From: Balanoglossus misakiensis
Taxonomy: Eukaryota; Animalia; Hemichordata
Assembly (NCBI GenBank): GCA_040954595.2
Contig: CM082589.2
Coordinates: 11,048,894 to 11,112,893 of the forward strand
Reading direction: 5' to 3'
DNA: 64,000 nt
Shown here: in pieces, positions 16,001 through 50,840 of the stretch
How the letters are laid out: each line of letters begins with the position of its first letter
Position numbering within the stretch: position 1 is the stretch's first letter
The notes under the pieces: generated by a model
The model's input: only the letters and a program-made list of their open reading frames with translations
What the model was told of the DNA's origin: nothing
Databases searched by the model: none
Position numbers and translations under genes: made by a program

Positions 16001-16190
16001 CAATTTTTTCCAATCAACTCGAAAATTACATTGCTTGAAGGAACTACTGCTGAAGCTTTCATCAGCAGAAGTGTTGAAATGAACCTCTATTGAAACAGGA
16101 ATATGGTCGGAGTCAACAACATTGCAAAGACTCGAAATTGAAAGAACATTGCTATGAGAAATTTCAGTGGTAACACAGTAGTCAATCCAA
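13055..16190 (-). mobile_element. 5'-truncated, disrupted non-LTR retrotransposon (APE endonuclease remnant plus reverse transcriptase; RTE-X/L2-like, clade uncertain)
   Basis: Minus-strand ORF pieces carry the APE C-terminal motifs WIDY...DSDH (~16190-16100) and RT motifs NYRPIAL, QFGFK, FLDASKAFDRVNH, GVRQGGVLSPYLFNVYIDD and LGYADD. The frame resumes past the MITE (…FKRRLENSSNVLLDAICSS…HWRKQLYIM*, stop at 13168). A CTGAAATAAA 3' tail lies near 13070. Stops and frameshifts separate the pieces. Confidence 0.9.
13284..14078. mobile_element. Non-autonomous TIR element (Kolobok-type MITE, 795 bp) inserted in the LINE RT ORF
   Basis: ~125 bp near-perfect inverted repeats (13284-13408 / 13954-14078), TTAA on both sides (13280-13283, 14079-14082) and GA..TC (RR..YY) termini. 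Removing it with one TTAA restores the RT frame. Confidence 0.88.
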
Positions 16191-16199
16191 ACTCAGCGT

Positions 16200-16847
16200 A
16201 ATTCAATAAAACGCCCTAACACAGCCTGAACTCCGATAATGTGTTGTCCCAAAATTCATTCCGTGGAAAATAATCACTGGTCTGTTTACGTATTTCAGCC
16301 GATTTTCCAAGGACTACTGCAACCCGCCAGAAGTGAGTAGCCTGCTAATGAGATCTCCACAACATAACGTAATGACGGTCAAAGTCCGATGCCCCAGTGT
16401 CCGTCCTCAGCCCACCAAAAAAAGCGAAAAAATATTACAAAAACCTTCTTCTCAAAATCGACGTGGCCTAGGACCTTGAAATTTGGCACAGGGGATTTTG
16501 GCCACATGGTCTACAAAAATCGCGAAAAGAATGTACATGCCCCCATTAACGTGCAAATTAGGTCAATTTGAAAATTTCGCTCGATTATAGCAACAAAGTC
16601 ACGTGACTAATTACAAATTCAAAGGGCTGGTGCACCAGTACTATGGGCCCCAACCACCGTGCCAAATTTGGAAGGCGCACCTGCCGGAATTTCAGAGAAA
16701 AACGGGCGCAAAAAAACGACTCAAGAAGAAAGAAGACAAACTCCAGCAATAACAGAAGGGGACCAAGCGCCTGAGGGCTCTTGGTCCCCTAAATATGGGA
16801 CTAAACTTGACAGATACCCGGAATATTTTCCTATTCAGGATACCTGG
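16200..16847. repeat. Left part of copy 1 of a 1125 bp tandem duplication, split by the giant transposon
   Basis: Matches 35863-36510 (the same 60 aa ORF appears at 16389 and 36052). Contains a hairpin GGGACCAAG…CTTGGTCCC next to a GAA-rich tract, reminiscent of Helentron-type non-autonomous elements. Confidence 0.92.
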
Positions 16848-17191
16848 AACAGCACGAAAACAATTTCCCAATTACCGAAAAACACACTTTTTTCAAAAAT
16901 TTCTACAGAAATATCAGGTTATTAAATTCAGTTATGTTGTACTTGATAATTTCACTGTGAATTTCTGATTTAGTCAAAAGTGGCTGAACATACTGGAAAG
17001 TTAAAGATATTCTTATGGAAATAACTAAATTTAAAATATAACATATTAAGTCATATAATTTTCCATGGTAACTATGTGAAAATGAAGAAGCAAAAGTCAT
17101 TTTATTACTTTTCAAGTGAAATTTCATTAATTGGTCGTTACTAAATTCTTTTTCGAAATATGTTGAGTTCCAACATGTGTCGGCTTGTCAG

Positions 17192-18013
17192 TTGCAAGAA
17201 ATTTCTTGCATGGGTGGGCGTGTCCATTGCAAGAAATTTCTTGCATGGGTGGGCGTGTCCCTTGCAAGAAATTTCTTGCATGGGTGGGCGTGTCCCTTGC
17301 AAGAAATTTCTTGCATGGGCGGGCGTGTCCCTTGCAAGAAATTTCTTGCATGGGTGGGCGTGTCCCTTGCAAGAAATTTCTTGCATGGGTGGGCGTGTGC
17401 ATGGGTGGGCGTATCCCTTGCAAGAAATTTCTTGCATGGGCGGGCGTGTCCCTTGCAAGAAATTTCTTGCATGGGCGGGCGTGTCCCTTGCAAGAAATTT
17501 CTTGCATGGGTGGGCGTGTCCCTTGCAAGAAATTTCTTGCATGGGTGGGCGTGTCCCTTGCAAGAAATTTCTTGCATGGGCGGGCGTGTCCCTTGCAAGA
17601 AATTTCTTGCATGGGTGGGCGTGTGCATGGGTGGGCGTGTCCCTTGCAAGAAATTTCTTGCATGGGTGGGCGTGTCCCTTGCAAGAAATGTCTTGCATGG
17701 GTGGGCGTGTCCCTTGCAAGAAATGTCTTGCATGGGTGGGCGTGTCCCTTGCAAGAAATTTCTTGCATGGGTGGGCGTGTCCCTTGCAAGAAATTTCTTG
17801 CATGGGTGGGCGTGTCCCTTGCAAGAAATTTCTTGCATGGGTGGGCGTGTCCCTTGCAAGAAATTTCTTGCATGGGTGGGCGTGTCCCTTGCAAGAAATT
17901 TCTTGCATGGGTGGGCGTGTCCCTTGCAAGAAATTTCTTGCATGGGTGGGCGTGTCCCTTGCAAGAAATTTCTTGCATGGGTGGGCGTGTGCATGGGTGG
18001 GTACGTCCCTTGC
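17192..18013. repeat. Left subterminal 35 bp minisatellite (~23 units) with a perfect 18 bp palindrome per unit
   Basis: Unit CCCTTGCAAGAAATTTCTTGCATGGGTGGGCGTGT; TGCAAGAAATTTCTTGCA is its own reverse complement. It explains the six repetitive ORFs in the track. Confidence 0.97.
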
Positions 18014-19195
18014 ATTGCAGGAAATATTTTAGACATGTCCCATCTGAAAAAAAATCAAGGCATATCAGTTTTCCTTGTTATAGGTTCACTCTATGTTCAC
18101 AAACTGCTAAGGATGTTTATAAAGTACAGTCTTCTATCAGATTTTTGATAATAAGGTAATAAACAGAACTGACACAAACATGTAATGTTTTTATGGCATT
18201 TATTCAAATGTAAACAGTGTGTAAATAAATGTCAATAACACACTATGTGTCATTCACATTTTCAAGATGGGTTGAAATACTTTATCTGAACCTTGAAAAC
18301 TTAAAAGATATACGGTCACCTATGAAAAATAAACTATAGATACCATGGCAAATTGAGATCTAGCCACCATCTGTTCTTTATAACGGTTAAATATGCCATT
18401 TCTGACATATATGGGCATATATATTGGAGGTGACTGAGGTATGCCTTTAAATACACACATAAGATCAGTAAGTGAAAAATATACATGTAAAATCTTTTAA
18501 GATTTTCCTCATTGAAAATGAAGGATAAAACTCATCTTTAGGCCACTCCTGAAAAATTCTGTATCAGGTAAATGAAATATATTTTGCACTTGTGAATTTG
18601 TTCTTAGTCAATGAAATCATGGCTATTTTTTTCAATTGCATTACACTATAAACCCATACCAAATATGACAATATAATGCTTTGAAATTGAAATAAAGACA
18701 TCCTCAAGATTATTTATACCAACTTTGAGAACTATCAGACAGGCAACTCATTCAGCCTTTTTAGAGAATTTCTTAACAATAAACAGAACTTGTCCCCAAC
18801 TTATATGTACAAATTATTACACAATTTAAATTTGGTTACCATTACACCTGTTCTTAAAAAATGTAGTGACCATGTAACACATGGCATCCGTATACAAAAT
18901 ACGGGAAATTTCGCAGAGAGAAATCTGTCTGAAGTGCCATTCGAAATACACTGAAAGCTTGTTGCGAAAATTAACTGTACAGATTTGTAATGCTTAAAAA
19001 ATTACAGTCAAATTACAGTTCTGAGTGAAAATATACACACAAGTACTACAGTCGTTGAGTGAAATAATGTTCAAAATACAATTTTATCTATTCGGTTATT
19101 CACAAATTATTTGTTGCACACTTTATCAGTGATTTAAAACCAGGTGTTTTCAACTAATGTGAAAAACATAAAATCACTGGTTACACTAAAAACAC

Positions 19196-22100
19196 TCACC
19201 CAGCAGCTTCATCAAGTTCTGAGTACTTTTTCTTCAGTTCATCAGCTGTTGCTTTTTTCAGGCATCCTTTCTTTGTAAGGGTGAAATCCCAAAGAATACA
19301 CGACTCAACAGGAATGGTGTCCACCCATGGCCTTCTGTTGGTTGCAAAGCCATGATATGCTTCCTTCCACATACCATTGTACTTGCCAACTAACCAGTGG
19401 ATGTTGAGCTCACTGTCATTTCTCTCTATAACCTGTGCTATTTGTGGCCTGGCATCATTGTCTGGTGCCCAGACTGCAATCAGCATTCCCTGGTCAACAG
19501 TATCAAAACTGTTCATTTCTTGCACTGCTGGGGCTTCCTGGTCTTTGTTTTGATTACCAATTGTCACCTATTCATCAAAAAGATAGAAGACAGAAGGTCA
19601 TTGCAGATGTTACAAATAATACTGCAATACTGAGTGAATCAGTATTGAGTAGAAACTTTGCACAACCCATTCTGCACAATACAATAGCACATTTTGTAAC
19701 TGTATTTAAATTATACTTATTCTGTTACAGACCAATAAAACACTTACTGGAGGACATGGAGCTGTTAGTTTCTCTTGGATACGCCTCAGTTCCTCTGGCA
19801 TATCTGTAGTATTTTCATTTCGTGCATGTTGTTTTCTAAGTGCTGCTTCTTTTAGTATATGGATCTGCCATCGCGTGGGTACACTGTTAGGAACCTGAAA
19901 GACATATTTTAATACATGTTATAACTTCAATTATAAAAGGGAATGTTGGCAAGGATGGAGTTGAATGTAATTTTAACAGTTGGGTTGGGTTGGGTTGGGT
20001 TATTTTCTATTCAATCAATCAATCAGAGAAATTTGTATAGCGCCAATATCTATAACAAGTGTCATACTCAAAGGCGCTTATGCTCATTAGCCCACACCAT
20101 ATGCTCTTGCGAATCTATGAATCAAAAGCAAATTTTGGTTTTACTACTTCTGGTACGCTAAAACGCCCAGTACATTCCTTGTCTCCCTTGCTTCATGTAA
20201 GTGTAGTCAAAACACATTGAAAAATGCATATGAATGGAATTATATGTAGACCAACCTTCTCCAAGTCTGTTATTTTTTCCATGAAGGTTTTCCAGGTTTG
20301 GACAGCTTGACTGGTCATTCTGTGGGCGAAACCAGCTGGAATGCTCTTTAATAAGCCATCCACGTCTAGTTTCATTAGGCTTGGTACAACCCATTCAGGT
20401 GGTTTATCAATGTTTGGGATAGTCTAAATGAATCAAAGTATATAAATGCATTAGTTGGTTGATTATTTGTTTCATGAAAATATACAGAGAAGAAATGCAG
20501 ACACAACATGGGTACAGATATGAATTACACAATTCAGTAGATAAATCATAATCCCAGAAATATCACAATCCTCTAATTTTCTATTGTACGAAGGTAACCC
20601 GTGTGTGATGAAATAAAACTATATTGTCGCCAAGCTTAATTTTGAGATAAACTGCATTAAATTATTTTGTTCTCAGAATTTAAAATGCCGTGTCAGCATT
20701 TTCCCTCATGATGGAAAAGTTCATGGCCTTGTATCTCAAAAATGAGCACAGATACCCAAACATTTTACTACACATTTAGATAATTACAAAGGAGAATCCA
20801 AAAATTAACAATTTAAAAAAGGGACAATAATTTGTTTTACCACTTGTACACCCTTAATTCTTATAGTGTGAACATGTCATCAAAAGTAATTACTACTTAC
20901 CATCAAACACAGAAGACCAGGAATCTCAACACCATCCTTTGGCATCGGCTGCCATGGATCTGTACACCATTCTCTGTACTGCATATAGGCTTTATCATCC
21001 ACTTTCCTAAAGCGGAAGTTGTGCGGACGGGAATGGCCTTTAAAATCTTTGTGCATGTGAGGAATAAGCCATTCCTTGATATTCAGCAGTTTTGTTGATA
21101 TTGCTACGTTGATGGCTGGTGTGTAGCTGCTTTCAATGATTGAGATTAAATCTGAGAAAATAGGTATAATCAGCAAATGAGTATTTAACATGATGTTGTA
21201 AAATGAAACATAGTGCATACACTTTTATCTGGCCGGCCGGCTGGCCGGTTATCAGTCTAAGAATGTAGACCGTTAATCAGAATATGTTTACCAATGTTTC
21301 AATTACTGAAAAACTGCTAAAGTTATTTACTTTTCAGCTGATCTATTTTATCCCGGCAGCACATTTTCTGTTGAATATTATGCACACTATTTGTGTTCCT
21401 GTTCAGTTTCTTGGATCTGACATCAATTGAAATTGTCTCTGTTCTCTATTGTTCTTATCAACTTACCTTCAACTGTGTAGGCATTTGATCTTTTTAATCC
21501 CACTGAGATCTTTGAAAACATCTGATCAACATTTTCATGCGTATGTCCCACAGGCAGAAAATTCACATAAATCTGTAATGATTACAATAATACGTATATT
21601 GTTAAACTATGAAATCACTGCTTTGAGCATATGCCAACCTCATTTTTTACAAACTAACAATGAAGAATTGTTCTTCATGAATGGTATTCATTTTGGATTT
21701 TATAATTAATGTGCCTAGAATTTACCATAGGTTAAACAATGAAGCACTTACTTCTTCAAATATATCCAGTTGTATCAGCAAGGCCATGAGACTCAACAAG
21801 AATCGGTTCTTGTTCTCCCGGAAACAATTGTCAAGTTGCAAATACAATGTTTTGGCTAGATGATCTTTGGATTCTACCAATACTTCTAGTAGGATATTCA
21901 TGGTCAAGTTGCTGTCGTGTGGAAACTGGTTCATGTCTATATAAACATATGGTATTTTCCCAGATGACACTCCAGTATGCAGTATATTGCCTGTTAAAAG
22001 AAAATTATATTATAGTATAGTGGTGGTAAAATGTGTGGTTTGTGAAATATTGGCAGAACTTCCTTCAGATTAAAATTCACATAATTTCAACACACATACA

Positions 22101-24567
22101 CAAAATGGAAGCTAAACATTAAAGAATATTTATAAAACACTTTAGTTAAAATGTGATATTATGTTGATGGGACTGATGATGAACAAATTTGTTCTTAACA
22201 AATGACTAGATGGAAGTGTACCGATAGTTTAAATGCAAAAAGAGCAATGAAGCAAAGTATCTCTCACTAGTACCTGTAACATGTGTCCGCAATCTCCACA
22301 AATTTGATGTTGCCTTGTCTTCTTTGATCAGGTGGGGTATATCTGTTTTGCTTTGATCCATGCCATCTTGAATGATAGCCATAATTTCATCTGGTTCCCT
22401 TTCTGCTTTTTCACGGTGGTAGTGATAACGCTTGCGTTCATTCCTTTAAAAGAAAAAAAAAAAATTGAGAATCGATTACTAATTTATTGAGATGTGGACA
22501 TACTTCTTTACAAGTTATCAATTTCACATCTATTTCTGCAAAACAAATGAGGTCACACACACACACACACACTCATGTATTGACTGTGCTTATGTGGGTG
22601 TGGTGCAAAAATGTGACTATGGGTTTTTAAAAAAAGATTATCATGGGTACTAACAAAACTGCAATTCAAGGTGAAGTACTTTACAAATCAAAGCACGATA
22701 TCAGCCATTTGTGGTGATCTGTCACCATTTTGATTTATGCGGCAAATGCAAATTTTTGTTCTTCTCCTGAAAGCAAGTTGAAACATTAAATGTTGATATG
22801 TGTAAACTGCATTGTTATTGTTGACAGTTTAATAAATTTCTTGTTTACTTACTCTACTTGTTTCAAGTGAAGTGCAACTAGACCTTTGACTCGACTTCTT
22901 TCAAACTCAGCTCTTGCTTTTGCAAATTGTTCATCCAGCCGAACACATGTTTCACAGCACACAAACTCGCTGCCCTATAAAAAAAAACATGATTAGTGAT
23001 CAGATACATACACTTCGTCAGTCACCCGTCGTAGCCTCCAAAGTCGTGTAAACCGTAGCAATGCGCCCGGAAGAGCCTCGAGCCTGCTACCGGCCATAGT
23101 CACTTCGGACCCTAGCTCTGCGTACAGGTCTGTGCGGTCCCGACGAACACACAGATCTGTACGCAGAGATATTCGTAGCTCTGTGTGGCAGGGCTGTGTT
23201 GTTACGGCGAGCCTCCACCCACACTGTAACAACACAGCCCTGCCACGCAGAGCTAAGATATTCGGACCCCTTCATGTCTTACCTTCGGCAAAGAAGCAAA
23301 ACTGTTGTATTATTGATGTGGTAATACTCGTCAGTTGCATGCGTTAATCATTGAAACTATACGGTGCAAAGAGACGGACATTGGGGACAACGGAAACATT
23401 TTGTATGCCACCGGCATGACAGGAACACAGACAAGCGGTACATTCACCACAAATCTCCGACAAAACAAAGGACAAAATGGCGTACTAGTCAGTATTTTAC
23501 GTCACGCTTGGATGATACCATTGTTTCTAGGAGTGGCGGAGGGTGATCAGTGGGAAATCTTGTGTAAACACATCGGTGCGATCATACAGATTTAAATACA
23601 GGGAAGAATTTGGCACAGTGTCACTGTAAAGTCTTACCTTTCCGATGACGAATTCCCGAAGGTGAATCTTCCATACTCTGCAGAAATAATCGTAACAGAT
23701 CATGTCTCTGGGACCGGCCCCTCGTGAACTGAACTCGTCTTTCATTCGTTGGTAAACCATGAGTTTGGTCCACGAACAGGGAAGGATCACCCTGTTTGCA
23801 TCATTGGGCATGTAGTCGCCCATTCTTTCGAAATAGAAACGCATCCAGGCAATCGCTTCTGTAGTTTTGTCCGTCATGTGACTTTTGCCGGAATTGCCGT
23901 GACGAACAGTCACAATGTCTTGCAGAAATAACTTTTCACATTCTGCAAAACGATAATCAGACACGTTGTATGCCAGTTGCCAAGCCTGTCGACACACTGC
24001 TCTTCCGGCTATTCTCATATTTGTTTCCGCCACAGGTTTTGATTTTATGAACCTCTTGTAAGAATTCTCACGAAAGCATCTTAATATGAACTGTTTCTGT
24101 CTGGACTCGTTCTCTAGGTTTTTCATATGTCGATCACACTCAAGCATTTCGTTTATAGTCAGGTTTCTAAGGCACCAATCTTCACAGCAGGGTTGACGTA
24201 ATACATCAAACGGGTCCCTTACCGGCTCACTGATGCGTCTCTTCTTAGGTGTGGACGTTACACGTTTAGTTAGTGGGTATGCACGTTCAACCGAGTCGAT
24301 GGCGGCAGTTTGTGAACTATAGCACATTGAGTCAGAATCATCATCGGTGCATGAGATGTCATATATTACAATCTCTTCGTTCGGGTTCGTTGCATTATCA
24401 TAAAAATCTTCTGAGGACGAGGACGAATCAAACAGTATTTCTTCCGATGAAGCGGACGAATCAAACAATATTTCTAGGCTTGCCATGTCATAATAGACTC
24501 CAGAGCGACCATGAGTATTTGAGGTGTCACGTTCGGGCTGGTCAGCCGCGTCTGCAGGTCCGGTCAT
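19196..24567 (-). CDS. Sola-like DDD transposase, 9 exons, ~834 aa, with a C-terminal Tudor/SH3-barrel-like domain
   Basis: Exons 24567-23638, 22974-22853, 22443-22274, 21990-21752, 21572-21467, 21151-20901, 20423-20256, 19894-19748, 19567-19196, all GT-AG, total 2505 nt in one open frame. Motifs: CCxxxC…IAGRAVCRQAW…HGNSG…LPxxxTK…YxYFCRVW…CETC, then IIQDGMDQ, LYLQLDNCFRENKN and FLPVGHTHENVDQMFS (three candidate catalytic acidic motifs). The start codon could instead be a downstream ATG. Confidence 0.85.
23113..23255. mobile_element. Two nested hairpin MITEs with TAG..CTA-type ends and 9 bp TSDs (AcademH-like), in transposase intron 1
   Basis: 23176-23255 is flanked by AGATATTCG on both sides. 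23113-23171 is flanked by TTCGGACCC once the second element is removed. Both are largely palindromic. Confidence 0.75.
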
Positions 24568-24989
24568 GTGTCGCGTCGTTAATTAGGCCTACGTGATTCA
24601 CGTGACCAGCGCGCGGCGCGAATGTCTGTCGTGGTTTGCGAGAGGGTCTGTCGCTACCAGTAACTACAGTAGCGGATGTCAGTCCCTTGGGTCAGTTGTA
24701 GTCCGGGACCGACCCCCGCCACTGGAATTGCAGCTGCCGAGCAAGCCGTTACGCAGTCCGCGAAAGTCAAAAGCCATAGAACCAAAGTACATGTAATCAC
24801 TTTTGTCCCAATAAAGTGGAAATCTATACCAATTTGTTTCGCTTGTCCTTCGAACGAAAGAGCGTCAAGAGGTCAATGAAATGTCACTATTAAAGTAATA
24901 CCTATTTTTCAATTAAATGAACACTATAATAACTACGATTGAAGTGTATTTCATGTAATATGCGTACATTAAGAGATCTATTTACGTAA

Positions 24990-27320
24990 ATCTAAGTTAG
25001 TTACAAAACCAGTCTTTATCTGTGTATCGAAAATTGAACGTACCGCGTGTATTCTTTTGAAATAAAACTGAACTTAGGACAGGTGTGAGAAACTGTTTAA
25101 ACTCTGAACACACTGCGTGCGACTACCCCCGTTTAAAACTGACGTGCTCATCATATTACAGCCCCGGATTACAGCTTCTGTGAAGTCAAAATATGTTTCT
25201 CTTGTACTGCAATTAAATGTTAATAATGTTTTTCTCTGTTTGGGAGCAGAGGTTTTGTCTTAAAATCAACTTTTGTTGTGTGCGAGCGTGCGTTGGACGA
25301 ACGTCATGAATTTTAACCAGTGACATGACAGGAAGTTCAACAGCAGGGCGATTAGCAGGACGATTCGCACTTTTCTGGTGGGACATCGTGCATGTGCATT
25401 GTTGACGAGAAAAATGCAGGAAACTCGCCAGGTGTAGCTTGACCAAACTACGCGACAAGACGGCCGTCAAATATCCCCAAACAAGCTTGTATGAGTACAC
25501 CAACTTGTGAGTCAAAGGTTTTCCAAGTGTAGATAGGCCTATACACCGAACACGAGTTTGTATGGTTTTTGAATTAGAGTGCCGTGACAGGCGCCTGTCA
25601 ATAGCCTCGGCTATTTACCAGTAAATCCCCCCATTTTGTAAATCTGAGTTAGTTACAGAATAATTCTTTATCTGTGTATCGAAAATGGGACGTGTATTCT
25701 TTTGAAATAAAACTGCTCCGTTAATAAATGACGTGCCCATCACATTACAGCTTCTGTGAAGTTAGCCCTACGTACGTACATGCAGGGGTAAGCCTGTGTG
25801 TTCGTGGCGTTACACGGCCTGGAAACGCCGCGAACGCACAGACCTGTACGTAGGGCTACTGTTAGACTAGCCCACTAGTCGCTTGGTGATTTTTAAATAT
25901 CAATACTCAATATTTTCGGTGTTTTTTTGTCTTAATAAATAAATGCAATACTTTTTGCGTGAATGCTTGCCTTGAGCGTGTTTTTAATAGTGAGGTGAGT
26001 TTCGAATTTGGGACTGAGCTTGTGGTTTCGGGTAGCGTCGCGTTCCCTACACATAATGAAGCCCATAGACTTGGAGCAAGTCTAGGCTACTGTTAGTCAG
26101 AATATGTTTCTCTTGTACGGCAATTAAATGTTAATAATGTTTTTCTCTGTTTGGGAGCAGAGGTTTTGTCTTAAAATCAACTTTTGTTGTGTGCGAGCGT
26201 GCGTTGGACGAACGTCATGAATTTTAACCAGTGACATGACAGGAAGTTCAACAGCAGGGCGATTAGCAGGACGATTCGCACTTTTCTGGTGGGACATCGT
26301 GCATGTGCATTGTTGACGAGAAAAATGCAGGAAACTCGCCAGGTGTAGCTTGACCAAACTACGCGACAAGACAGCAGTCAAATATCCCCAAACAAGCTTG
26401 TATGAGTACACCAACTTGTGAGTCAAAGGTTTTCCAAGTGTAGATAGGCCTATACACCGAACACGAGTTTGTATGGTTTTTGAATTAGAGTGCCGTGACA
26501 GGCGCCTGTCAATAGCCTCGGCTATTTAAATCCCCCCATTTTGTAAATCTGAGTTAGTTACAGAATAATTCTTTATCTGTGTATCGAAAATGGGACGTGT
26601 ATTCTTTTGAAATAAAACTGCTCCGTTAATAAATGACGTGCCCATCACATTACAGCTTCTGTGAAGTTAGCCCTACGTACGTACATGCAGGGGTAAGCCT
26701 GTGTGTTCGCGGCGTTACACGGCCTGGAAACGCTGCGAACGCACAGACCTGTACGTAGGGCTACTGTTAGACTAGCCCACTAGTCGCTTGGTGATTTTTA
26801 AATATCAATACTCAATATTTTCGGTGTTTTTTTTTGTCTTAATAAATAAATGCAATACTTTTTGCGTGAATGCTTGCCTTGAGCGTGTTTTTAATAGTGA
26901 GGTGAGTTTCGAATTTGGGACTGAGCTTGTGGTTTCGGGTAGCGTCGCGTTCCCTACACATAATGAAGCCCATAGACTTGGAGCAAGTCTAGGCTACTGT
27001 TAGTCAGAATATGTTTCTCTTGTACGGCAATTAAATGTTAATAATGTTTTTCTCTGTTTGGGAGCAAAAGTTTTGTTTTAAAATCAACTTTTGTTGTGTG
27101 CGCGCGTGCGTTGGTCGAACGTCATGAACTTTAACCAGTGACATGACAGGAAGTTCAACAGCAGGGCGATTAGCAGGACGATTCGCACTTTTCTGGTGGG
27201 ACATCGTGCATGTGCATTGTTGACGAGAAAAATGCAGGAAACTCGCCAGGTGTAGCTTGACCAACACCACGCGACAAGACGGCCGTCAACGGCCCACCGA
27301 ATCAAGCGTGTCTGACACCA
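24990..27320. repeat. ~910 bp tandem repeat (about 2.5 copies) in the shared upstream region of the two transposon genes
   Basis: The same minus-strand ORF ends at 25213, 26124 and 27031 (offsets 911 and 907). The two middle copies are nearly identical, and the outer edges are more diverged. Confidence 0.92.
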
Positions 27321-27415
27321 ACTTTAGGGTTTCGTCGAATCATGGGTTTCCCAAGTGTATATATACCATGTATACTGCGAACACAAGTTAGTGTGCCACA
27401 GTCTGCATATTCGAC

Positions 27416-30400
27416 ATGGGGCGAAAGAAGTGGTGGTTGGAAGAGTCCAGCAACGCAGCGTACTTGTATTCTATCGAAAATGGCAAGAAATTTAGGATGC
27501 GAAACAAGAAGACTGGGGTGGAGTTTGAAGAGGTTATTTCGATGTCTGTTTTTAAAGACAAGCCGGACGCGTTAAAGGTAAGACTTTGGTCGCTGTCACT
27601 GTCAGCAGTTTTAAACCAAGGAGCACCTTGTGCGCTGTGTATGATGATTAATTCGTGAAATTGCTGCCATAACATTGCAGTACATGATGTACAGTCTATG
27701 CTAGCCGTGCGTACAGGTATGTATGTTCCCGGTGTTACATGGTGTAACGCCGGGAACATACAGACCTGTACGCACGGCTAAGTCTATGCACATGCAGTGC
27801 CCGCACTGACCAAACAACAACATATACATTATGATCGCGTTGTCAAATAACCGCTGTTTATTTTTTTAGACAAACGTACAAGCAATTCCGCCTATGTAGT
27901 GACGACAAGTGAATCTATTTTTAACGCTTCCCGTACGACCTACATGTCGCACCGTAGTTGAGAGCTAGCGCTCTCAACCATGGTGCGGCCTGTGCTGTGG
28001 GTTGGATGGTCTGAAGTGCGGATGATCGCTCCTGTTATCATCGGTCCAAATTGGCACCGTGCCGCGAGTCGACACTTCAGCCTGCGTCTATGTAAACAGT
28101 TGTCATCTGCTACAACTTCACAAGCGCATAAACCGTCGAGCTACGTGCAGCCGGTGTGATGTTGATAACCGCGTGCATTATTACCGTTATAATTTCTTCT
28201 AAAATACTTTTACATTACAGTTTGAATTTCTGCAGTCATCTGGACAGAATTTTGTTTTTGTGTTGGAGAGGAAATACTTTGAATGGAATCGGTCCACGTT
28301 CAGCAGAAAGTTCAAGGAGGCAAGCACCCCAGGAGAAATGGTAGCTGTCTTTACTGACTGGCGAGCTCAATTTAATGATAGTCCAATGTCTATAGGGGGT
28401 ACCGATGACGAGGAGGATCAAGAAGATCATGATGGTGAAATCATTTTCAACACAAGTTCTCCAAACTGTAGTGGCAGATCTACTAGTTCACTTGACAGCC
28501 CACATGCACGCCCCAGTAGTGGCCGTCCAGCTTCGGGTAGAATGTAAGTTTTTTTTTATGCATTGTGCCACTGTGAGAGGACATAAACACAGGATCAACT
28601 TTGTATGTTTAACGACAAATAGGAAGTGCATGGCTGATTTAATTTGTAATATATCCATCAATATTGACATTTCTATACCTTATAGTGACCTTACTTTGCA
28701 AATTTTATAATTTCTGGGAATCACTATTTTTGCTTTGAAGGCTGTGTTTGAACCATGTAATGACTGTTTCCCAAGCCTGTTCTATATTGTACTGAGGCTC
28801 ATTTCCTTTAGAATCTCCATTACTTTGATAGCTTTTGTACTAAATTTATTATGTCTTCTCTTGTTTTTATGTGGGTGCGTAAAAAAGTAGATATTGTCAT
28901 TTTGTGTCATTTAAAATTCACTTACAAATGGTTCTGCTTTCAATGTTATGAACACAACCATGAAATCAGTGAAAAAATCAATTTAAAAAAAATCCTCATT
29001 TTTCTTCCCTATAGGGTACGTCCTAAGAAGCGGAAATTGACCCAAGCGACTGATTCAGTTAGTGCTGTTACGTTGAAAAGGCAGTATGTAGAGGAACTTA
29101 AAAGTGATGTTCAGACCCGTGTACATCAGGCATTTTGTGGTAAGGTTGTTAGTTCTTACATGGATATATGGGAGACGGTCCAAGGACTGTTTCTGTGAAT
29201 CCTGTTGGCAGTTCATGTCCATTAAACATTTCTTTGTGTCACTACTGTCAATTTTCACAATTTCATGGATCTCAACCATTTTGAATAGCAAAGCAAACAA
29301 GTTGATAACCTTATGTAATTCTTATGACAGATGTTATTTGAAATATATGCATCAAATATTGACATTTCTAGAGAGAGAGAGAGTTATGTATGTAATTATT
29401 TACACTGCTGTTCACTTTCAGGACATTTTACCATAAGTGTAAGAGCATTGGAAGGAGGGGACCAGCAAATCCGTGAAAGTGATGATCAATTTCTTAAGCA
29501 GCTAATCAAGTCTATGGAGGATTACAGAGATGAAGCATACCAGCCATTGTGTTTGTCTGTGAGGGATTTACTAGACACCTCCCAGTTTGATGGAACAAAG
29601 GCAAGCATATTTAAATTTTCACATTCCCGTCTTATGTAGCAAAGACAGATACTGAGTATGGCTGTTATCAAATATCACATGAGAGACCAGTTATCATTTT
29701 GGAATGGTGTAATAATATTTTACTTATCTAATGTCATGTTTTTCGTTGATTCATGTGTTCTCACCGTGGCAAGTTTGCTGAATTCTGCTGCACATGTTCT
29801 TGATGTTGACAACCCTCCAGCTCACCCAAGTTTTCCTTGTTTTGGTGTGTTGTATGGGCTGTCACCTGTCGTTCACAACTTTACATTATATTTTTCTCAC
29901 GTTTAATGCTGTACACAATAAATACAGCAAAAGATGAAAGGTTTCTTTCAAAAGCCGAGTTCCTATCAACAATTAACAGCAGAATGTTTCAGATTTGAAT
30001 TGGAGTAGAGTAGAGTAACAATTACTTCTGTGTACATGTCTGTGTGTTCCTGGCATCAGATAGTCTCTACCCAAGCCCTGCTTCAGTCCATAAACTATTA
30101 AAAATGGTGTCTGGTTCTGCGCGGGATTGCACATTGGTGTTGCCAATACTGAATAGTGCAGTGTATTTCTTTTCAGGTCAATGGTTATGCCTATGATGTC
30201 ATTGGTGGCCAACACACCCTACTTGCCACAAGAGAACTTGCAAAGCGTCATCAAAGTGATCACCGATTCAAGACTTTAAACTGTGTAGTGTATGTGGGAC
30301 TTCAAGATGAAGATAAGAAGTGGTTAGGTGTTCGCCACAACAAAACTGGTGAATTCCGTCATGCAATGACATTCAGAGACAAGGTAATTTCATTTCAATA

Positions 30401-33400
30401 AACTTTTGAATGTAGCTGGTGTTGACCATCAGGTCATTCAATGAGAACTCATTAGTATACATGTATTTGTAACCATATAAATAGGTTGTGTAAATCAGTG
30501 CAAATTGCAAAATCATCTTAAAAGGGAACAATCACAGAAACAGCTTCATCTGTTTGCTATAAATGTGAAATAAGATTCTTTTTGTTAATATGAAATATGC
30601 ATCAAGTAAAGGCTATTAACTTGTTAAATAAAAGCCATTTGCCCTCCAGCATAGGGCAAATGACATTCTGCATTCAGGGCCCATAAACCAATGTATTCAG
30701 GGTTTCTCACAGATGCTAAACCAAGTGGTTTGTTTGTTTGGTAGGTTGCAATCTGCCGAGCAAGTCGGAGTGAAATGCCGGAGGATATACAGCCCAGTGA
30801 GTTTAAGAATTCATGTAGAATTATTCTCAATGAGGTAAGTTGTTTTCGTCAATGTGGAAATTCAATGTGGTGTCTTTTAAAGAATGTCAGTATTAAGATA
30901 TGGCAGAACTTATTTTCCCAACATATTTTTTTCATCGCCCCGTTTGATATTTAAATAAAATACAACATTACATGCATAAATAAATCAAAGTTTGTGAGAC
31001 ACTGTTAAGTTCCAAATAATAGTAATTTTTAGTACTTGCCTGTCTTCTATATTTCTCACTGCACTTCAGACTTACAATATTGTAATACACCATAGTTAAG
31101 TTACATGAAATTATTTTCACAGTAACTGGTTGATTAATATTAATGCTTCCCCGAAAAGTCCAGTTTGCTGGCTTTGCAAAATAATTGGCATGTCATATTT
31201 TTGTCTTCTGTAGGAAAAAGTCAACCAGACAGTTGACATAGCATGCATGTTGGCTTCGTATGATGATCCAACATATTCATTAATCAGGCAGTTCCTGGAG
31301 ATGTTTGAAGATGGAGGTCTCAAAGACCAGAAGCTGAAATCATCAGACAGGATTTCAAGACCGGACTTCAAACCTTACAAGTTCAAGCATTTCAAAGTTT
31401 TGGATGTCAAGACAATCCAGTCCCTTCTTCAAGATGCTATAGACCACAATTTATCCCTTGAACAGTTCACTCAGGAAAGCGCTGTCCTTTCGAAACTCAG
31501 ACGTGTTCAACGTGCGTTCATTCACGAGACAGGAGTGTGCGATTGGGAAGAGGCAGTAAAGACATATCCTCATGAAACAACACGGGAACGACTTCTAAGA
31601 TTTACAAACCTAAAATTCAATGGACTGACCATACCAGAGACCTTTGTGCAGTATTGTCGAAGAGTACAGAGGGAGAAAGCTGAGGGCCTTAATGCCAGAC
31701 CAGCAGACGTTTACCCTGGTAATGGAGGGAACCGAGGAATAATCTTTCAGGCAGATGTGCTGAAGTTGAACCAGACTATTCTCAAGGAAAATGGGGTGAA
31801 CTGTGATGGCTTCGACCTGGCTGTTGTTGATGTTCCCAGTGTGAGTTATTTCATTTTTTATTGCAAGGTTATAATATTGCTAAGGCATTGGAAAAAGCAT
31901 ATTTTTTAGACCAAACATTTCTCAGATTTAAAATTAAGTGTTAAGTGAGAATGAAGACATTAGCTACGTTTTTCCGTGCAGACATATTGGGATATTCACT
32001 GGTAAATCTCATAAATCTGAAGTAATTGGTGAGATCATGTTGAGTCTCATATTACACTCCTTGTAGGACTGCACCATTATTTATAGGGGGTGATTACAAA
32101 CAAAGGGGTTGCAGAACGATAGTATTGTTTTATCATTTGATATAGAGTTTAAAAAAGACAGTGTGATCAGAGTCATCTACGGGGCGTATAGCTATATAAA
32201 TTCCTTCCAGTGCAATGATTTCAGGGCAATGATTTATTACAGGGTGTCATTTAATTCCATAATCTCACCCAATTACACCTTCTGAGATTGGCAGTAACAT
32301 TTTTTTACAAATATTTTACATTGTGTTTCAGGACTGGTCAATGGATGATATTAGGGAATTTGTAGTTGTCATGAAAAATCTAAATACGAATACCAGCAGT
32401 TACAGGGTCATTCTGCTTTGTGAAGTTGACAACCTGGTGAAAATCAAGCAAGAACTGAAAGCCACACACTGTTTCAAGAGAGTTGAAGATGGATTCTACT
32501 ATGTGGAAAACACAAAAAGAGGTTTGTATACATATTTAGTACCTAGCTGGTATATTTAAATATAAAATTATGACCTTTGACATCAGACCACTCTTATCAC
32601 TTGCACCTACCATTTAACTATATTAAGTCCATATTAAAATATTATAAGCAGCAATATTTGTCTTTCATATTTCTTTCAGAGACAAAGGTGACCTTGACAC
32701 GTTCCGTCAAGGGATTGGTTGTTGCGTATGCATCAACTTCTGCACAGATAACAGAAGATCAAGTCTCCTGTGCTGGCAGGCATAATTTTTGGAGTGTGAA
32801 GCAGGATGTTCTGGAGAAGGATGGGGAGGGTGCTGTAATTTGCTCAAGGCAAAAGCCGCTTAACCTGTTTGAGTATCTCATTAAAGACTTTGCATCGCCA
32901 GGATCATGGATGCTGGATGGTATATGTGGTGCAGGTGAGATACAGAACATTTACATCACTCACAATCTAGCCAACTGTAGTCAAAACGGGGTAACTGATG
33001 AATGGACATCACAGTGTTCTCTCATATTAATGAGTGTTGGCCAATACCCCCTTTCATTTGTGGAAAACATAAAAAACAATGTTTATTTTACACAACAATG
33101 AATTGCATCGTTATGCAAATAAGTCAATAATTTATCAGGGATTGCTGGGGAAAACACTCATAGTCATTTTTGAAAAATAAAGTAACCTGCAGATGTAAAA
33201 ATTTTGACTGGTTGTGCAAGTTTACCTTTGGTGCTCGTTTTGCGTAACATGAGTGGAGTGGAAGGGCTGTTAGGCCAATAATCATTATTGTCTCTCTCTG
33301 TTTCGAAAGTTTACACGCAGTCATCCCATAAGGCTAGCACACTATTTTTCTGTCAATGAACCCGTAGTACTGCTGGTATTCTTTCCAGTAATATACGTAA

Positions 33401-33668
33401 AATTATATCAACTGATGGAAAAGAGGTGACAGGTAGAGACATTGTTTTGTATAATATATACTGTGATGCAAAGACCCAATTTTTTGCAATGACTATATTA
33501 ACATTTACAAATATATTGCATTTTTCAGGCACTGCTGTAATTGCTGGGCTGACAAATGATGTCAACGTGGTGGGAATAGACACCAATGAAAGATGTATCT
33601 CTCACTGCAAAGTGAGATGTCAATCTCTTCTTGGACTAACAGATGCAGAAGATCTGGAGTTTGATTGA
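27416..33668 (+). CDS. ParB/Srx-like domain fused to a beta-class N6-adenine/N4-cytosine DNA methyltransferase-like domain, 10 exons, ~760 aa
   Basis: Exons 27416-27577, 28236-28543, 29015-29139, 29422-29600 (GC donor), 30177-30383, 30745-30834, 31214-31840, 32332-32521, 32680-32934, 33529-33668; total 2283 nt in one open frame. NLS-like RPKKRK. ParB-like QIRESDDQFLKQLIKSM…PLCLSV…YDVIGGQHTLLA…VVY…LGVRHN. MTase-like IFQADVL…FDLAVVDVPS, then QKPLNLFEYLIKDFASPGSWMLDGICGAGTAVIAG…VVGIDTN (motif IV before motifs X-I-II, the beta order). Confidence 0.82.
27702..27780. mobile_element. 79 bp palindromic MITE, TAG..CTA ends, 9 bp TSD (AcademH-like)
   Basis: AGTCTATGC at 27693-27701 and 27781-27789 flanks TAGCCGTGCGTACAGGT…ACCTGTACGCACGGCTA. 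Confidence 0.85.
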
Positions 33669-33896
33669 TGAGGGTTTTGATAAGATGCTCATACAGTACA
33701 CCTAATACAGTCCTGTATGTTTGAGCTAATATTATGAATTTTCTGTTTTTATGCATTTTCTCTGTCTTTTTCCACATATTTTGAACAAATCTTGATTTCT
33801 GAAAGTGAAAAGCTGATTTCTTAAGTTGGTCTGAGTTACCATGGTTTTGTTCAAATTGTTGCAAAATGTGCATTTTTATAATTTTTGCAATTTTTG

Positions 33897-34818
33897 TCTG
33901 TGGGTGTGTCCCTTGCAAGAAATTTCTGACATCTGTGGGTGTGTCCCTTGCGAGAAATTTCTGACATCGGTGGGTGTGTCCCTTGCGAGAAATTTCTGAC
34001 ATCGGTGGGTGTGTCCCTTGCAAGAAATTTCTGACATCGGTGGGTGTGACCCTTGCAAGAAATTTCTGACATCGGTGGGTGTGTCCCTTGCAAGAAATTT
34101 CTGACATCGGTGGGTGTGTCCCTTGCAAGAAATTTCTGACATCGGTGGGTGTGTCCCTTGCAAGAAATTTCTGACATCGGTGGGTGTGTCCCTTGCAAGA
34201 AATTTCTGACATCGGTGGGTGTGTCCCTTGCAAGAAATTTCTGACATCGGTGGGTGTGTCCCTTGCAAGAAATTTCTGACATCGGTGGGTGTGTCCCTTG
34301 CAAGAAATTTCTGACATCGGTGGGTGTGTCCCTTGCAAGAAATTTCTGACATCTGTGGGTGTGACCCTTGCAAGAAATTTCTGACATCGGTGGGCGTGTC
34401 CCTTGCAAGAAATTTCTGACATCGGTGGGCGTGTCCCTTGCAAGAAATTTCTGACATCGGTGGGCGTGTCCCTTGCAAGAAATTTCTGACATCTGTGGGT
34501 GTGTCCCTTGCAAGAAATTTCTGACATCTGTGGGTGTGACCCTTGCAAGAAATTTCTGACATCGGTGGGTGTGACCCTTGCAAGAAATTTCTGACATCGG
34601 TGGGTGTGTCCCTTGCAAGAAATTTCTGACATCGGTGGGTGTGTCCCTTGCAAGAAATTTCTGACATCGGTGGGTGTGACCCTTGCAAGAAATTTCTGAC
34701 ATCGGTGGGTGTGTCCCTTGCAAGAAATTTCTGACATCTGTGGGTGTGACCCTTGCAAGAAATTTCTGACATCGTTGGGTGTTGACATCGGTGGGTGTGT
34801 CCCTTGCAAGAAATTTCT
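33897..34818. repeat. Right subterminal 35 bp minisatellite (~26 units), related to the left array
   Basis: Unit CCCTTGCAAGAAATTTCTGACATCGGTGGGTGTGT: same length and same orientation as the left array, differing at about 4 positions. Confidence 0.97.
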
Positions 34819-35385
34819 TAACTTGTATGAGATCTTAATTTTAATGAGCATAAACATAATTTTTGTGTGAAAATATCTGTAAATCAACTTTGTAATTTTT
34901 ATCAGTGCTTTTTATGCAAGAATATTGGGCTTATCTGTATAAAACTCCTTATGTGTAAGAATAAACACAAAATTATTGGTTTGAAAACCTCGAATGTCAC
35001 ATTGTGATTTTTTCATTGTTAATTTTTCTATGGTGGACTATAGATATCACTATTTCTATGAATTTTTTTATTTTTTATTTTCTACAAGTTAGTAATAAGT
35101 TTTTCAATAATAATTTGTGAAAATGTTCCCACCAACCATAAACAGTCTAAGCACCAATTATCAATGTGGTTTTTTTCACCATACTCGTTTTCTTTATAAA
35201 TACATGAAAGTAGATTTTTCCTTTAAAATATCGGCGATGGAATATGCAAAGGCAACTAAAGAAAAGATTACTAAGTAAAAACTATACATCTTCATAATTT
35301 AACTGCTATTTTAACTTTATTTCAATGAAATTTCCTGAAATTTTTGGTTTTCGGTTATTGGGAAATTGTTTTCGTGCTGTTCTGG

Positions 35386-36988
35386 TTGCATTTCCACCTA
35401 AAGGCGTCCTATTGGCGTGGAAATTGTATAACTTGAAATCGTTTGACTGGGTGATAGGTATTAATATCTTATGATGTTATAAAACACTTGGCTCGCCGAA
35501 GGTATGGACCGATTATAGCGTCAGTCGTGTCATACAATCTATATGAACGTCATGGGTCAATAAACTTGATGGTCCAATAAAATTCAATGGTTAGTAAAAC
35601 TATTGTGTCCAATGTCTGCAGAGTATACTGGCTGCAACATGTGTATGAGTCAGGATTAATGTCTGTAGCCATCAACCCAAAAGGTGAACGTCCTATTCTC
35701 ACTAACTTAAATAGGTTTTGCGACCTAGTTGAGTTATAAAAACCTTATGATAAAGTCGACACAATTTCAAGATGACGATGTGCAAATGAGAGTTCATAAG
35801 CTAAAGTAAAGTTCAATGAATTCTATACAAAGTTCAAAAAAGATTGTTTACTAAAGGAAGACAATTCAATAAAACGCCCTAACACAGCCTGAACTCCGAT
35901 AATGTGTTGTCCCAAAATTCATTCCGTGGAAAATAATCACTGGTCTGTTTACGTATTTCAGCCGATTTTCCAAGGACTACTGCAACCCGCCAGAAGTGAG
36001 TAGCCTGCTAATGAGATCTCCACAACATAACGTAATGACGGTCAAAGTCCGATGCCCCAGTGTCCGTCCTCAGCCCACCAAAAAAAGCGAAAAAATATTA
36101 CAAAAACCTTCTTCTCAAAATCGACGTGGCCTAGGACCTTGAAATTTGGCACAGGGGATTTTGGCCACATGGTCTACAAAAATCGCGAAAAGAATGTACA
36201 TGCCCCCATTAACGTGCAAATTAGGTCAATTTGAAAATTTCGCTCGATTATAGCAACAAAGTCACGTGACTAATTACAAATTCAAAGGGCTGGTGCACCA
36301 GTACTATGGGCCCCAACCACCGTGCCAAATTTGGAAGGCGCACCTGCCGGAATTTCAGAGAAAAACGGGCGCAAAAAAACGACTCAAGAAGAAAGAAGAC
36401 AAACTCCAGCAATAACAGAAGGGGACCAAGCGCCTGAGGGCTCTTGGTCCCCTAAATATGGGACTAAACTTGACAGATACCCGGAATATTTTCCTATTCA
36501 GGATACCTGGTTGCATTTCCACCTAAAGGCGTCCTATTGGCGTGGAAATTGTATAACTTGAAATCGTTTGACTGGGTGATAGGTATTAATATCTTATGAT
36601 GTTATAAAACACTTGGCTCGCCGAAGGTATGGACCGATTATAGCGTCAGTCGTGTCATACAATCTATATGAACGTCATGGGTCAATAAACTTGATGGTCC
36701 AATAAAATTCAATGGTTAGTAAAACTATTGTGTCCAATGTCTGCAGAGTATACTGGCTGCAACATGTGTATGAGTCAGGATTAATGTCTGTAGCCATCAA
36801 CCCAAAAGGTGAACGTCCTATTCTCACTAACTTAAATAGGTTTTGCGACCTAGTTGAGTTATAAAAACCTTATGATAAAGTCGACACAATTTCAAGATGA
36901 CGATGTGCAAATGAGAGTTCATAAGCTAAAGTAAAGTTCAATGAATTCTATACAAAGTTCAAAAAAGATTGTTTACTAAAGGAAGACA
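35386..36988. repeat. Remainder of copy 1 (35386-35863) and uninterrupted copy 2 (35864-36988) of the 1125 bp tandem duplication
   Basis: 35386-35863 matches 36511-36988 (offset 1125), and 35863-36510 matches 16200-16847. Confidence 0.93.
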
Positions 36989-48783: not shown

Positions 48784-50840
48784 TAAATTAAACACTTTTT
48801 CTTGTTCCTCTCCTCATGAGTAACCCATCACACCCAGCTCTCTGCTTGTCAACGAGTCATGTGTATGTGTACTGACTGTTGTTATTATTTACGAATGTTT
48901 TCAAACAACAACAATGCCGATTGTGCCCTCATAGGTTTCGTTGAGAAGTTAAGACTATGGATTTAACTCTGCCCTGCGTAGCTGAACAAGAAACTATAAT
49001 TGATACACAGAATAGAAATACTGAAAAATGCAAAAAGTTACAGCTAATGGGGCTTAAGTCATGAAACTGTGTTTATTTTCATGTATATTGGCTTGAGACA
49101 GCTCACTATTTATGATGTGTGTTGTGACATTTTTTATTCTTTTCAGTTTCTACATTTTGACACTGAACTTTATCATGATACTGTTGTCATTGTCGAGGTG
49201 TCTGTGTTTGACCCATCCAAAGTTCTTGCCACATACAGTGGACCGGACCAGCCTGATGAAGTTATTAGCAGTGGTAATGCAATGTTGGTGAAATTTCTCT
49301 CAGATAGTTCGCATACTGCTACTGGCTTTGAAGCATCTTGGCAAGCAGGTAATACCAAGTTTTATACATAATGTAAAACTGGAAATTTTCGCAAACGATA
49401 AATTTTCGCGAACTACACATAAACTTTGCATGTGTGGACACAAGGCAACTAAAAGCATTAATGCTCTGTGTTTACCTTAGGCAAATAGTGTCTCTGAAAC
49501 GTTTCGAATTTTACCCTACGTGAACCTGGTATAACATTATAGATTGCACATGTAGGCAATATTTGCCCTACCTCGACTGTGATCTTGCTGATGTCCTGTT
49601 TGTGAAGTGTTTCTGTTAAGATGACTTCTTCTTTCTTTCAGTGTATTCTTTGTGTGGTGGGAATTTCATAGCACAGTCATATAAACAGAATCTCAGCAGT
49701 ACAGAATATTTTGAAGGCAAGAATTATCTCAACAATGAAGATTGTAACTGACAGCTGGCATCATTCACAACAGAATTTGTTGTCACTTTACAGGTAGTGG
49801 ATTCAGATGCAATTAATCGTGTGAGTTGTTTTACAGCATGACAAAAATTAGTAATTATATTTTTAAAAATACATTTTATTTTTGTCATTTCTGGTCAATT
49901 CTCAGTAGTCACTTTTCCGATTTCTTAAAATTTGGTTTACAAGGACCTACAATATTTGTTATTATGGTGTACATAAACATGTGACAAATATCAATACTGG
50001 GGAGGAGGGGGGTGGGTAGTTTTAGACATTTTTGGTCCAAAAGTCCACTTATGTCAGAAACGGCTCTTCCAGTTGTTTTGGATTTTGGTTTATTGGGATG
50101 TGAAAATATTCTTTATCAGATGTATTCTTATATTACCTCATCAATGCTAAAGGTGTCCTTATAGGGACGAAGTCTCTCTCTCTCGCTGCCCTTTTCCCAT
50201 TAATTATGTTTGATACAAGACACCGTTTATGTTATTCTACATGAGGATATATAGTGAATCAACATTCGACCACACACACCTTCCATCCCATTTTTAGGAT
50301 ATGAGAGTAAAAATCTCGCCCAAAATGAAGCGGGATGGAATGTTGATTCACTATATATCCACATCTAGAATAACATAAACGATAATCAAACGATAATTAA
50401 TGGAAAAGGGGCAGCGAGAGAGAGAGAGACTTTGCCCCTTAATGGTTTTGTGTAGGAAATTGTGATCACTATGATTGTACGGTATGTCACATTTAAATGT
50501 ACATATCAAATGGGAGCAAAGTGTCTTTGATGCTATTTTTTATATCTTTTCCGTTTATCTCCTTTGCAACAGAAGATGGGGCTGATCAAGTGTCTGTATA
50601 CGATGGCGCTGAACTGAATCCTGCCCTCAGACTTGCTTTATTTTCTGGGATGGAGTTACCCAATGTCATCATATCTTCCAAAAGTATGATGAGAGTTGAC
50701 ATTAAGAGTGATGATGCAGTTACAATGAGAGGTTTTCATGTACATTACTGGGCAGGTAGGTAACGCATTCAAATTGATCAAGACGTTGTTTGAATGAAGA
50801 GGCAATCAAGGATTCATGATGCAAGAGAACAATGTTTTAA

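Follow-up and report, generated by a model that had tools for sequence, protein, structure and literature searches.

Giant transposons of algae that carry ParB-like and methylase genes were described in 2025. The Ectocarpus element Sola1-1_Ec32 measures 21.5 kb, with AACCG-CGGTT termini flanked by a target site duplication of 4 bp. Opposite the transposase it carries a gene with ParB-like and N4-cytosine/N6-adenine (N4C/N6A) methyltransferase domains; the authors propose that proteins of this kind act on the element that encodes them, by binding and modifying it (PMC12477816). Plavaka elements of Bostrychia, 17-19 kb long, carry PAG2, a PF01555 methylase with a SET domain, and PAG3, a ParB-like protein with a 2OG oxygenase domain, and tandem arrays of inverted repeats lie by the ParB-like gene as proposed binding sites (bioRxiv 10.1101/2025.02.11.637652). 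The accessible text of these reports describes no test of self-binding or self-modification. Here we analyzed a 64,000-nucleotide stretch of the hemichordate Balanoglossus misakiensis (GenBank assembly GCA_040954595.2, contig CM082589.2, positions 11,048,894 to 11,112,893; hereafter the window, to which all coordinates refer). It contains a whole DNA transposon of 18,534 bp (16848..35381), of the cut-and-paste type by its hallmarks, with an accessory gene (27416..33668, plus strand) that encodes a ParB-like domain fused to a methylase-like domain. We conclude that this is an animal version of the ParB-methylase transposon design. Its apparently catalytically broken form is newly described relative to the literature searched; that search, which did not cover Repbase or most subscription papers, found neither an animal form of the accessory gene nor the loop deletion reported below.

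The likeness to Sola1-1_Ec32 extends to giant size (18.5 kb here), the 4-bp duplication, the ends (AACAG-CTGTT here) and an accessory gene opposite the transposase. The two differ in host, in protein length (1104 residues in the alga, 765 here) and in the terminal inverted repeats (282 bp against 34 bp, imperfect to about 87 bp); compared by description only, the methyltransferase is predicted to be active there, whereas motif IV is broken here. Plavaka differs from the window element in its EnSpm-type transposase, in having ParB and methylase in separate genes, and in SET and oxygenase domains that are not found here.

Our preferred reading, to which we give about an even chance, is that the accessory gene is an intact transposon gene whose product, a ParB-like protein joined to a pseudo-methylase, binds palindromes at the element's ends and helps the transposase act on ends 18.5 kb apart. 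Loss of methyl-transfer catalysis, taken alone, is likely judging from the sequences. The methylase domain should be read together with the ParB-like domain to which it is fused, as part of a transposon accessory gene, and not alone.

The accessory gene and its predicted folds

The 765-residue protein is laid out as an N-terminal beta domain, an acidic linker, a ParB-like domain, a helical region and a beta-class methyltransferase-like domain. Its nearest prokaryotic look-alikes are phage and prophage fusions of ParB_N with N6_N4_Mtase (scores 0.84-0.85, a lead only), such as the Wolbachia phage WO methylase and the ParB-Tls loci of PMC4738411, which have the same domain order, with ParB ahead of the beta-class methylase. 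These fusions differ in keeping DPPY and the ParB arginine, and in having neither introns nor an extra N-terminal domain, and they show low identity to the accessory protein in partial alignments only. The accessible part of PMC4738411 treats the ParB-terminase-locus methylases as sources of eukaryotic clades.

Folds were predicted for two relatives, P0001 (Ptychodera flava XP_070534462, a RefSeq model and the closest relative at 85% identity over 716 columns; predicted local distance difference test score, pLDDT, 83.7) and P0004 (pLDDT 82.8). CcrM was the best structural match of both models. Residues 443-663 of the P0004 model matched it at Z 21.9 (root-mean-square deviation, rmsd, 3.2, 209 residues aligned) and the P0001 model at Z 14.9 (rmsd 3.4, 177 aligned). 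The first 20 structural matches of P0004 were all beta-class DNA methyltransferases, and N4CMT matched this model at Z 19.1. When the family profile was compared with the sequences in PDB, the top nine matches were again all beta-class methyltransferases (E 3e-11 to 4e-6), so the resemblance of the methylase domain is not a chance one. Pfam PF01555 matched exon 9 of the window alone weakly, below the cut-off (E 0.047).

The first-pass annotation had identified a beta-class methyltransferase domain from the motifs IFQAD, FDLAVVD, QKP, a S-adenosylmethionine (SAM) motif and VVGID, all of which are present in the order it listed. Exon 7 (31214-31840) closes with IFQAD and FDLAVVDVPS, exon 8 (32332..32521) opens with DW, exon 9 (32680..32934) holds QKP (residue 692), SPGSWMLDGICGA and most of SAM motif I (DGICGA, 32916-32934), and exon 10 (33529..33668) supplies GT...VVGID with the rest of motif I, motif II (GID at 735, D737) and the stop codon. 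The order is the permuted one of the beta class, since motif IV at residue 568 precedes motif I (DGICGAG) at 714, and it is collinear with the phage enzymes. Motifs I and II of the SAM site are both in place, and the aromatic fourth residue of (D/N/S)-P-P-(Y/F/W) is absent from the window copy, which reads DVPS. Motif order, profile matches and the CcrM-like models of relatives thus bear out the identification, the predictions for P0001 and P0004 giving a beta-class fold of Rossmann type. We place the window's domain, as a predicted member, in the beta-class N6A/N4C (PF01555) fold and do not file it as an active enzyme. The PDB profile searches aligned only the stretch after motif IV, and the equivalence of motif IV itself is drawn from a multiple alignment with four phage enzymes and from structural ranges, not from residue-level superposition.

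The ParB-like assignment comes mainly from the P0001 model, in which residues ~200-327 matched PadC (Z 10.2, rmsd 2.7, 96 aligned) and residues 193-461 matched pNOB8 ParB (Z 10.0, rmsd 4.7, 212 aligned); KorB (Z 8.6) and Srx (Z 8.4) were further matches of the ParB/Srx fold. Foldseek (E 1.8e-5) and PHROGs (ParB-like, E 3e-4) gave the same assignment, the PHROGs matches on P0001 covering both ParB and methyltransferase. In each of the seven pairwise comparisons, conservation within the protein is highest in the ParB-like region. Its motif GGQHT (residues 273-277; 30204..30218, plus strand) has Thr where the phage ParB-methylase has Arg. The arginine of GxxR is part of the nucleotide-binding motif of ParB. 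Among 71 motif-bearing proteins, a set that was not de-duplicated, 3 have it at this place, as does the phage WO protein. Because the arginine is absent, clamp behavior of the ParB type is doubtful for the window protein.

The N-terminal domain (residues 1-108; 27416-28380) is predicted to be strand-rich with a helix at its end and has weak PH-fold matches (Z 5.8-5.9). It is retained at 21-45% identity in sponge, anemone, echinoderm and hemichordate relatives.

The gene has ten exons, and its spliced frame contains no stop. Eight of the introns have GT-AG ends and one has GC-AG ends. Intron 4 requires this GC donor (29600-29601); its protein junction recurs in the P. flava model. The three introns that interrupt the methylase-like domain (31841-32331, 32522-32679 and 32935-33528) are of the GT-AG type, and the reading frame continues across all of them. 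Together with the animal relatives, these introns uphold the earlier view of a long residence in eukaryotes. Bacterial contamination is excluded by the ten exons, by animal flanks with CUB, Sushi and EGF exons and by relatives in animal assemblies.

Several relatives are fragmentary or degenerate, as would be expected if the gene were a passenger relic without current function. We nevertheless find this hardly credible for the window copy, in which ten exons, intact splice sites and 765 codons without a stop have been kept. In comparison with P. flava, the folded domains (132/142 identical residues, and 150/181 in the methylase domain) are better conserved than the linker (56/81), and full-length relatives exist in sponge, anemones, echinoderms and hemichordates. 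Methylase-domain identity to two Saccoglossus proteins is 58/125 and 69/177.

Apparent loss of the motif IV tyrosine and loop across the family

The motif IV remnant DVPS (residues 568-571; 31829..31840) ends exon 7 at the phase-0 intron 7 (31841..32331), which sits where the loop deletion of the family falls. The exon model confirms the reading DVPS|DW across the splice junction, and P. flava XP_070534462 shares the junction (DVPN|DW), although its last exon differs and ends before motif I. The donor at 31841 agrees with 7 of 9 consensus letters and was the top of five candidate donors scored. In none of the plus frames does intron 7 place a Tyr, Phe or Trp codon after a Pro codon, and the Pro codon of DVPS is not directly followed by GT or GC as a donor; a micro-exon therefore cannot provide an aromatic fourth residue. 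A weaker in-frame donor at 31868 would insert nine residues with Tyr and Phe and leave Ser in fourth place. An alternative junction or micro-exon that would restore a canonical motif IV, raised as a possibility in the first-pass annotation, is rejected on the donor scores and this codon scan.

The sequence search with P0001 gave 376 representatives at E <= 0.001, of which 150 were listed and 20 looked up. Among the matches looked up, relatives belong to Ptychodera, Saccoglossus, Holothuria, Patiria, Exaiptasia, Actinia, Halichondria, the amoebozoan Clastostelium and Chara; Apostichopus also has one. No relative turned up when metagenomes were scanned with P0004. Two Branchiostoma belcheri proteins (P0150 and P0185) have the ParB-like domain with a different C-terminal half, in which no methylase-like domain was recognised.

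For the motif IV profile, 185 proteins yielded 129 aligned domains, 84 of them with a residue in the motif columns and 71 distinct (65 non-Chara, 6 Chara-type). An aromatic residue (Y, F or W) at position 4 was found in none of the 65 non-Chara rows, against five of the six Chara-type rows, which have Y. Instead, position 4 is K (18 rows), E (18) or D (7) in most of the non-Chara rows; 51 of them have D, N or S at position 1 and 35 have P at position 3. Set against four phage enzymes and six Chara rows, the loop after motif IV falls 12 residues short of that in Chara and 5 short of that in the three phage enzymes of the DLPY...KWD type. The valine of DVPS is unremarkable, since close kin usually have a second residue other than proline (DLPY in phage, DFPY or DLPY in Chara). 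As judged from these alignments, what breaks motif IV is not the valine but the deletion, throughout the family, of the tyrosine together with the loop behind it. Of the earlier description as DPPY changed to DVPS, the loss of the tyrosine stands and is not peculiar to the window copy; the two-letter swap does not, as the tyrosine went together with 5 to 12 loop residues and the valine is normal in kin.

In 26 of the 65 rows the frame runs on with Val and stops within 80 residues, as for read-through of a GT donor at this position, and the site of intron 7 is therefore likely old. Sixteen rows, ranging from sponge to hemichordate and including the amoebozoan, preserve the xW that follows the motif; it is reached without extra residues in the long frames of P0004 and P0005, which lie on short contigs, and in P0080, a Trinity transcript of Clastostelium. 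A tree of 24 methylase-domain rows (P0183, P0158, P0016, P0006 and P0164 were left out as too short and P0145 as too degenerate) parts the Chara and phage rows from the loop-deleted rows with 85/76 support and long branches; with such support and branches, a single loss of the loop is not shown.

In solved beta-class enzymes, the amine of the target base bonds to residue 1 and to the carbonyl of residue 2 of motif IV, the tyrosine stacks on the base, and the loop after it serves to read the DNA (PMC10406627, accessible part). A double change of SPPY to APPA abolishes the activity of N4CMT (PMC8885841, likewise). Because the window protein lacks both the tyrosine that stacks the flipped base and the loop that reads DNA, it would probably not transfer methyl groups. 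Of the two possibilities raised in the first-pass annotation, a pseudo-enzyme or an enzyme of altered specificity, we favor the former and regard the latter as the lesser option.

A still-active, rebuilt site is the form that the latter option would take. D568 and the carbonyl of residue 569 would activate an amine and W573 would stack the base, with N6-methyladenine (6mA) or N4-methylcytosine (4mC) written on the element, or with another amine-bearing substrate as the target. The window copy has kept the Asp and the Pro together with QKP, GxG and the acid of motif II; among the 65 non-Chara rows, 32 retain [DSN]xP and 7 read DPP or NPP, and the xW of the 16 rows spans a wide range of hosts. 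Enzymes of the METTL3 type moreover use the Trp of DPPW, as stated in the accessible part of PMC8885841. However, W573 and its counterparts align with a loop-end aromatic residue that phage (KWD) and Chara (PF/HF) relatives carry in addition to their Tyr, so that by sequence the Trp cannot be read as a displaced Tyr. In most rows K, E or D stands at position 4, and positions 1 and 3 vary. Among the 14 non-Chara eukaryotic rows that reach motif I, GxG is kept in 8 and lost in 6, including rows from sponge, anemone and a Ptychodera paralogue. We therefore regard a rebuilt site as unlikely. Quite unlikely, too, is its stronger version, a working phage-derived parS/ParB-methylase module in which the protein loads on the palindrome arrays, W573 replaces the Tyr and 6mA or 4mC is written on the protein's own element; if true, hemichordates, echinoderms, cnidarians and sponges would possess an amino-methyltransferase with a non-canonical active site and an epigenetic mark that the element writes on itself.

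The Chara braunii proteins CBR_g41648 and CBR_g66820, direct matches of the sequence search, share the ParB-like, helical and methylase regions and differ in DFPY/DLPY, a loop longer by 12 residues and motif I as FSGSG, being intact in sequence. Their only label is "DNA methylase N-4/N-6 domain-containing". By sequence the Chara family appears intact and may comprise active writers of 6mA or 4mC. The intact Chara and broken animal forms make a natural pair for asking whether a transposon keeps such a gene for methylation or for DNA binding. In the 1,825-residue model CBR_g41648 (P0030), the ParB-methylase unit occurs twice in tandem and has DxPY each time.

Established eukaryotic 4mC writers, bdelloid N4CMT and Marchantia DN4MT1, likewise have a beta-class fold of bacterial origin with the SAM motif after motif IV (accessible parts of PMC8885841, PMC10406627 and bioRxiv 10.1101/2021.02.12.428880). 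They differ in keeping SPPY, in being host genes and in having no ParB-like domain. Membership of the window gene in the DN4MT1 or N4CMT family is unsupported, as both keep SPPY. Retention of the fold after loss of catalytic residues has parallels in METTL14/MTA9 and in the inactive methylase domains of DIRS1 elements, the latter also transposon-borne (accessible part of PMC4738411). METTL14 differs in that it partners an active subunit, whereas the window element encodes no active partner, and the DIRS1 domain belongs to another methyltransferase group and another element class. As a caution, database labels such as "DNA methylase N-4/N-6 domain-containing" on echinoderm proteins should not be taken as proof of 4mC or 6mA writers.

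Palindrome arrays and the possible role of the accessory protein

Two arrays of 35-bp units lie inside the transposon, 326 bp from its left end and 599 bp from its right end. The left array (17174..17990) holds 22 copies of an 18-bp palindrome, 20 of them perfect, and the right array (33900..34782) holds an imperfect form with 26 matches within 3 mismatches, the last at 34805. The palindrome of most units reads TGCAAGAAATTTCTTGCA, and within 3 mismatches it occurs nowhere else in the window outside the two arrays. The window copy thus presents the algal design in an animal, with an intact element, an adjacent empty site and a candidate binding site near both ends.

In our preferred reading, the ParB-like and helical part would bind the 18-bp palindromes as sites of the parS type, the retained methylase fold would provide a scaffold for dimers and may still hold SAM, and loading of the protein at both ends would aid end pairing or access of the transposase. 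As to history, a phage-type ParB-methylase fusion was probably captured by a eukaryotic transposon; it would have stayed catalytically intact, in sequence, in Chara, and the lineage now found in animals and one amoebozoan would have lost the loop of the active site.

Transposases often bind subterminal repeats. The arrays might accordingly be transposase sites or a neutral minisatellite, with the accessory protein acting elsewhere, for example on chromatin at target sites or, through its N-terminal domain, as a non-catalytic partner of some host protein. The absence of the ParB arginine and the weak PH-fold matches of the N-terminal 108 residues, a fold often used for protein contacts, are in line with this. 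Plavaka, however, also pairs inverted-repeat arrays with a ParB-like gene despite its EnSpm-type transposase, and the ParB-like protein is therefore the partner to which the shared arrangement points. With the ParB-like region also the best conserved part of the protein, we hold this alternative to be improbable.

A second alternative is chromatin protection, in which the pseudo-enzyme on the arrays would mark off the element and shield it from silencing, as VANC does for VANDAL, and would not be needed for cutting. VANC21 binds short motifs that are densely arrayed in the non-coding parts of its own element (PMC5735166, accessible part). In the window element, the divergent promoter region between the two genes (24568..27415) and the first transposase exon lack CpG depletion (observed/expected 1.11 and 1.09), whereas the gene bodies are depleted (0.52 and 0.63). 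Yet ordinary expressed genes of invertebrates show this CpG pattern as well. The arrays themselves are CpG-poor (0.55 and 0.49), and they lie near the termini, downstream of both genes, not at the promoter. Chromatin protection therefore appears an unlikely explanation.

The preferred reading of a pseudo-methylase that assists at the element's ends has several points against it. For both folds the models are those of relatives and not of the protein spliced from the window copy. The alignments with Spo0J (224-453, Z 5.8) and pNOB8 ParB (193-461) extend weakly into the helical region, where a helix-turn-helix would lie, the ParB arginine is missing in the window copy and in 68 of the 71 motif-bearing proteins, and the arrays could equally be sites of the transposase. 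Regarding catalysis, the window copy retains most of the machinery for binding SAM and the amine (D568, P570, QKP, GxG and D737), 8 of 14 rows keep GxG, 7 of the 65 rows read DPP or NPP, and the Trp two residues past the motif could take up the place of the Tyr in the folded domain. The 65 rows are for the most part interrelated single-exon fragments and do not represent independent events.

The transposon and its transposase-like gene

The boundaries of the element were drawn from its inverted ends, a 4-bp duplication and an empty-site copy. The left terminal inverted repeat (16848..16881, plus strand) starts with AACAG and is identical at 33 of 34 positions to the right one (35348..35381, minus strand), which ends in CTGTT. 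The target site duplication CTGG flanks the element on the left (16844..16847) and right (35382..35385). An alternative reading of the ends has a 2-bp TG duplication and ends that are longer by one base. The empty site (35863..36988), with a single CTGG at 36507-36510, contains the flanks uninterrupted and at 100% identity: positions 16200-16847 equal 35863-36510 (648 bases) and positions 35382-35863 equal 36507-36988 (482 bases). The duplicated flank may stem from a recent tandem duplication or from two haplotypes that the assembler placed in tandem; whichever applies, the empty-site copy fixes the ends of the element. The insertion appears to be young, as this comparison suggests. A 1,125-bp unit is accordingly present twice at 100% identity (16200-16847 / 35382-36988), once split by the transposon and once whole.

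Terminal inverted repeats and a 4-bp duplication, both checked on the empty site, agree with Sola1. The target does not: it is CTGG in the one insertion available, whereas Sola1 targets are of the AWWT type (PMC3845634, accessible part). The element is Sola1-like, placed by its ends and duplication and not by transposase homology, and because of its target we do not file it as Sola1.

Head-to-head with the accessory gene lies a DUF7869 transposase-like gene (19196..24567, minus strand) of nine exons with an open frame of 834 residues, in which D377, D461 and D503 are candidate catalytic residues. The frame has a Pfam DUF7869 match, a domain that reaches E 2.7e-68 on protein P0159, and Saccoglossus LOC144350661 is 68% identical to the frame over 603 residues. 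The literature search found nothing on DUF7869, nor any link of DUF7869 to Sola. LOC144350661 and the Saccoglossus relative of the accessory gene, LOC102805610, each lie on a contig of 576,650 bp; from the equal size we infer that the two are linked on the same contig. Two Saccoglossus locus names are absent from the PMC4738411 supplement, and the accessible part of that paper gives nothing on the animal family.

The last transposase exon (19196-19567, minus strand) encodes a C-terminal region of ~120 residues that has no Pfam match and is conserved in the Saccoglossus relative. The promoter region contains a tandem block with a unit of ~907 bp (25184-27395), consisting of two near-identical copies (899/905) and a partial third (350/378).

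Surrounding sequence

Left of the element, the window begins with an AT-rich satellite array (1-12171) with a ~78-bp unit, higher-order repeats and a GC content of 26%. A small element resembling a miniature inverted-repeat transposable element follows at 13280-14082, with inverted repeats of 143 bp that are 96% complementary. A broken piece of a retrotransposon without long terminal repeats (14033-16192, minus strand), with reverse transcriptase matches and in-frame stops, abuts the duplicated flank on its left. On the right, a host gene on the plus strand has exons at 49048-56605 that encode CUB, Sushi and calcium-binding EGF domains.

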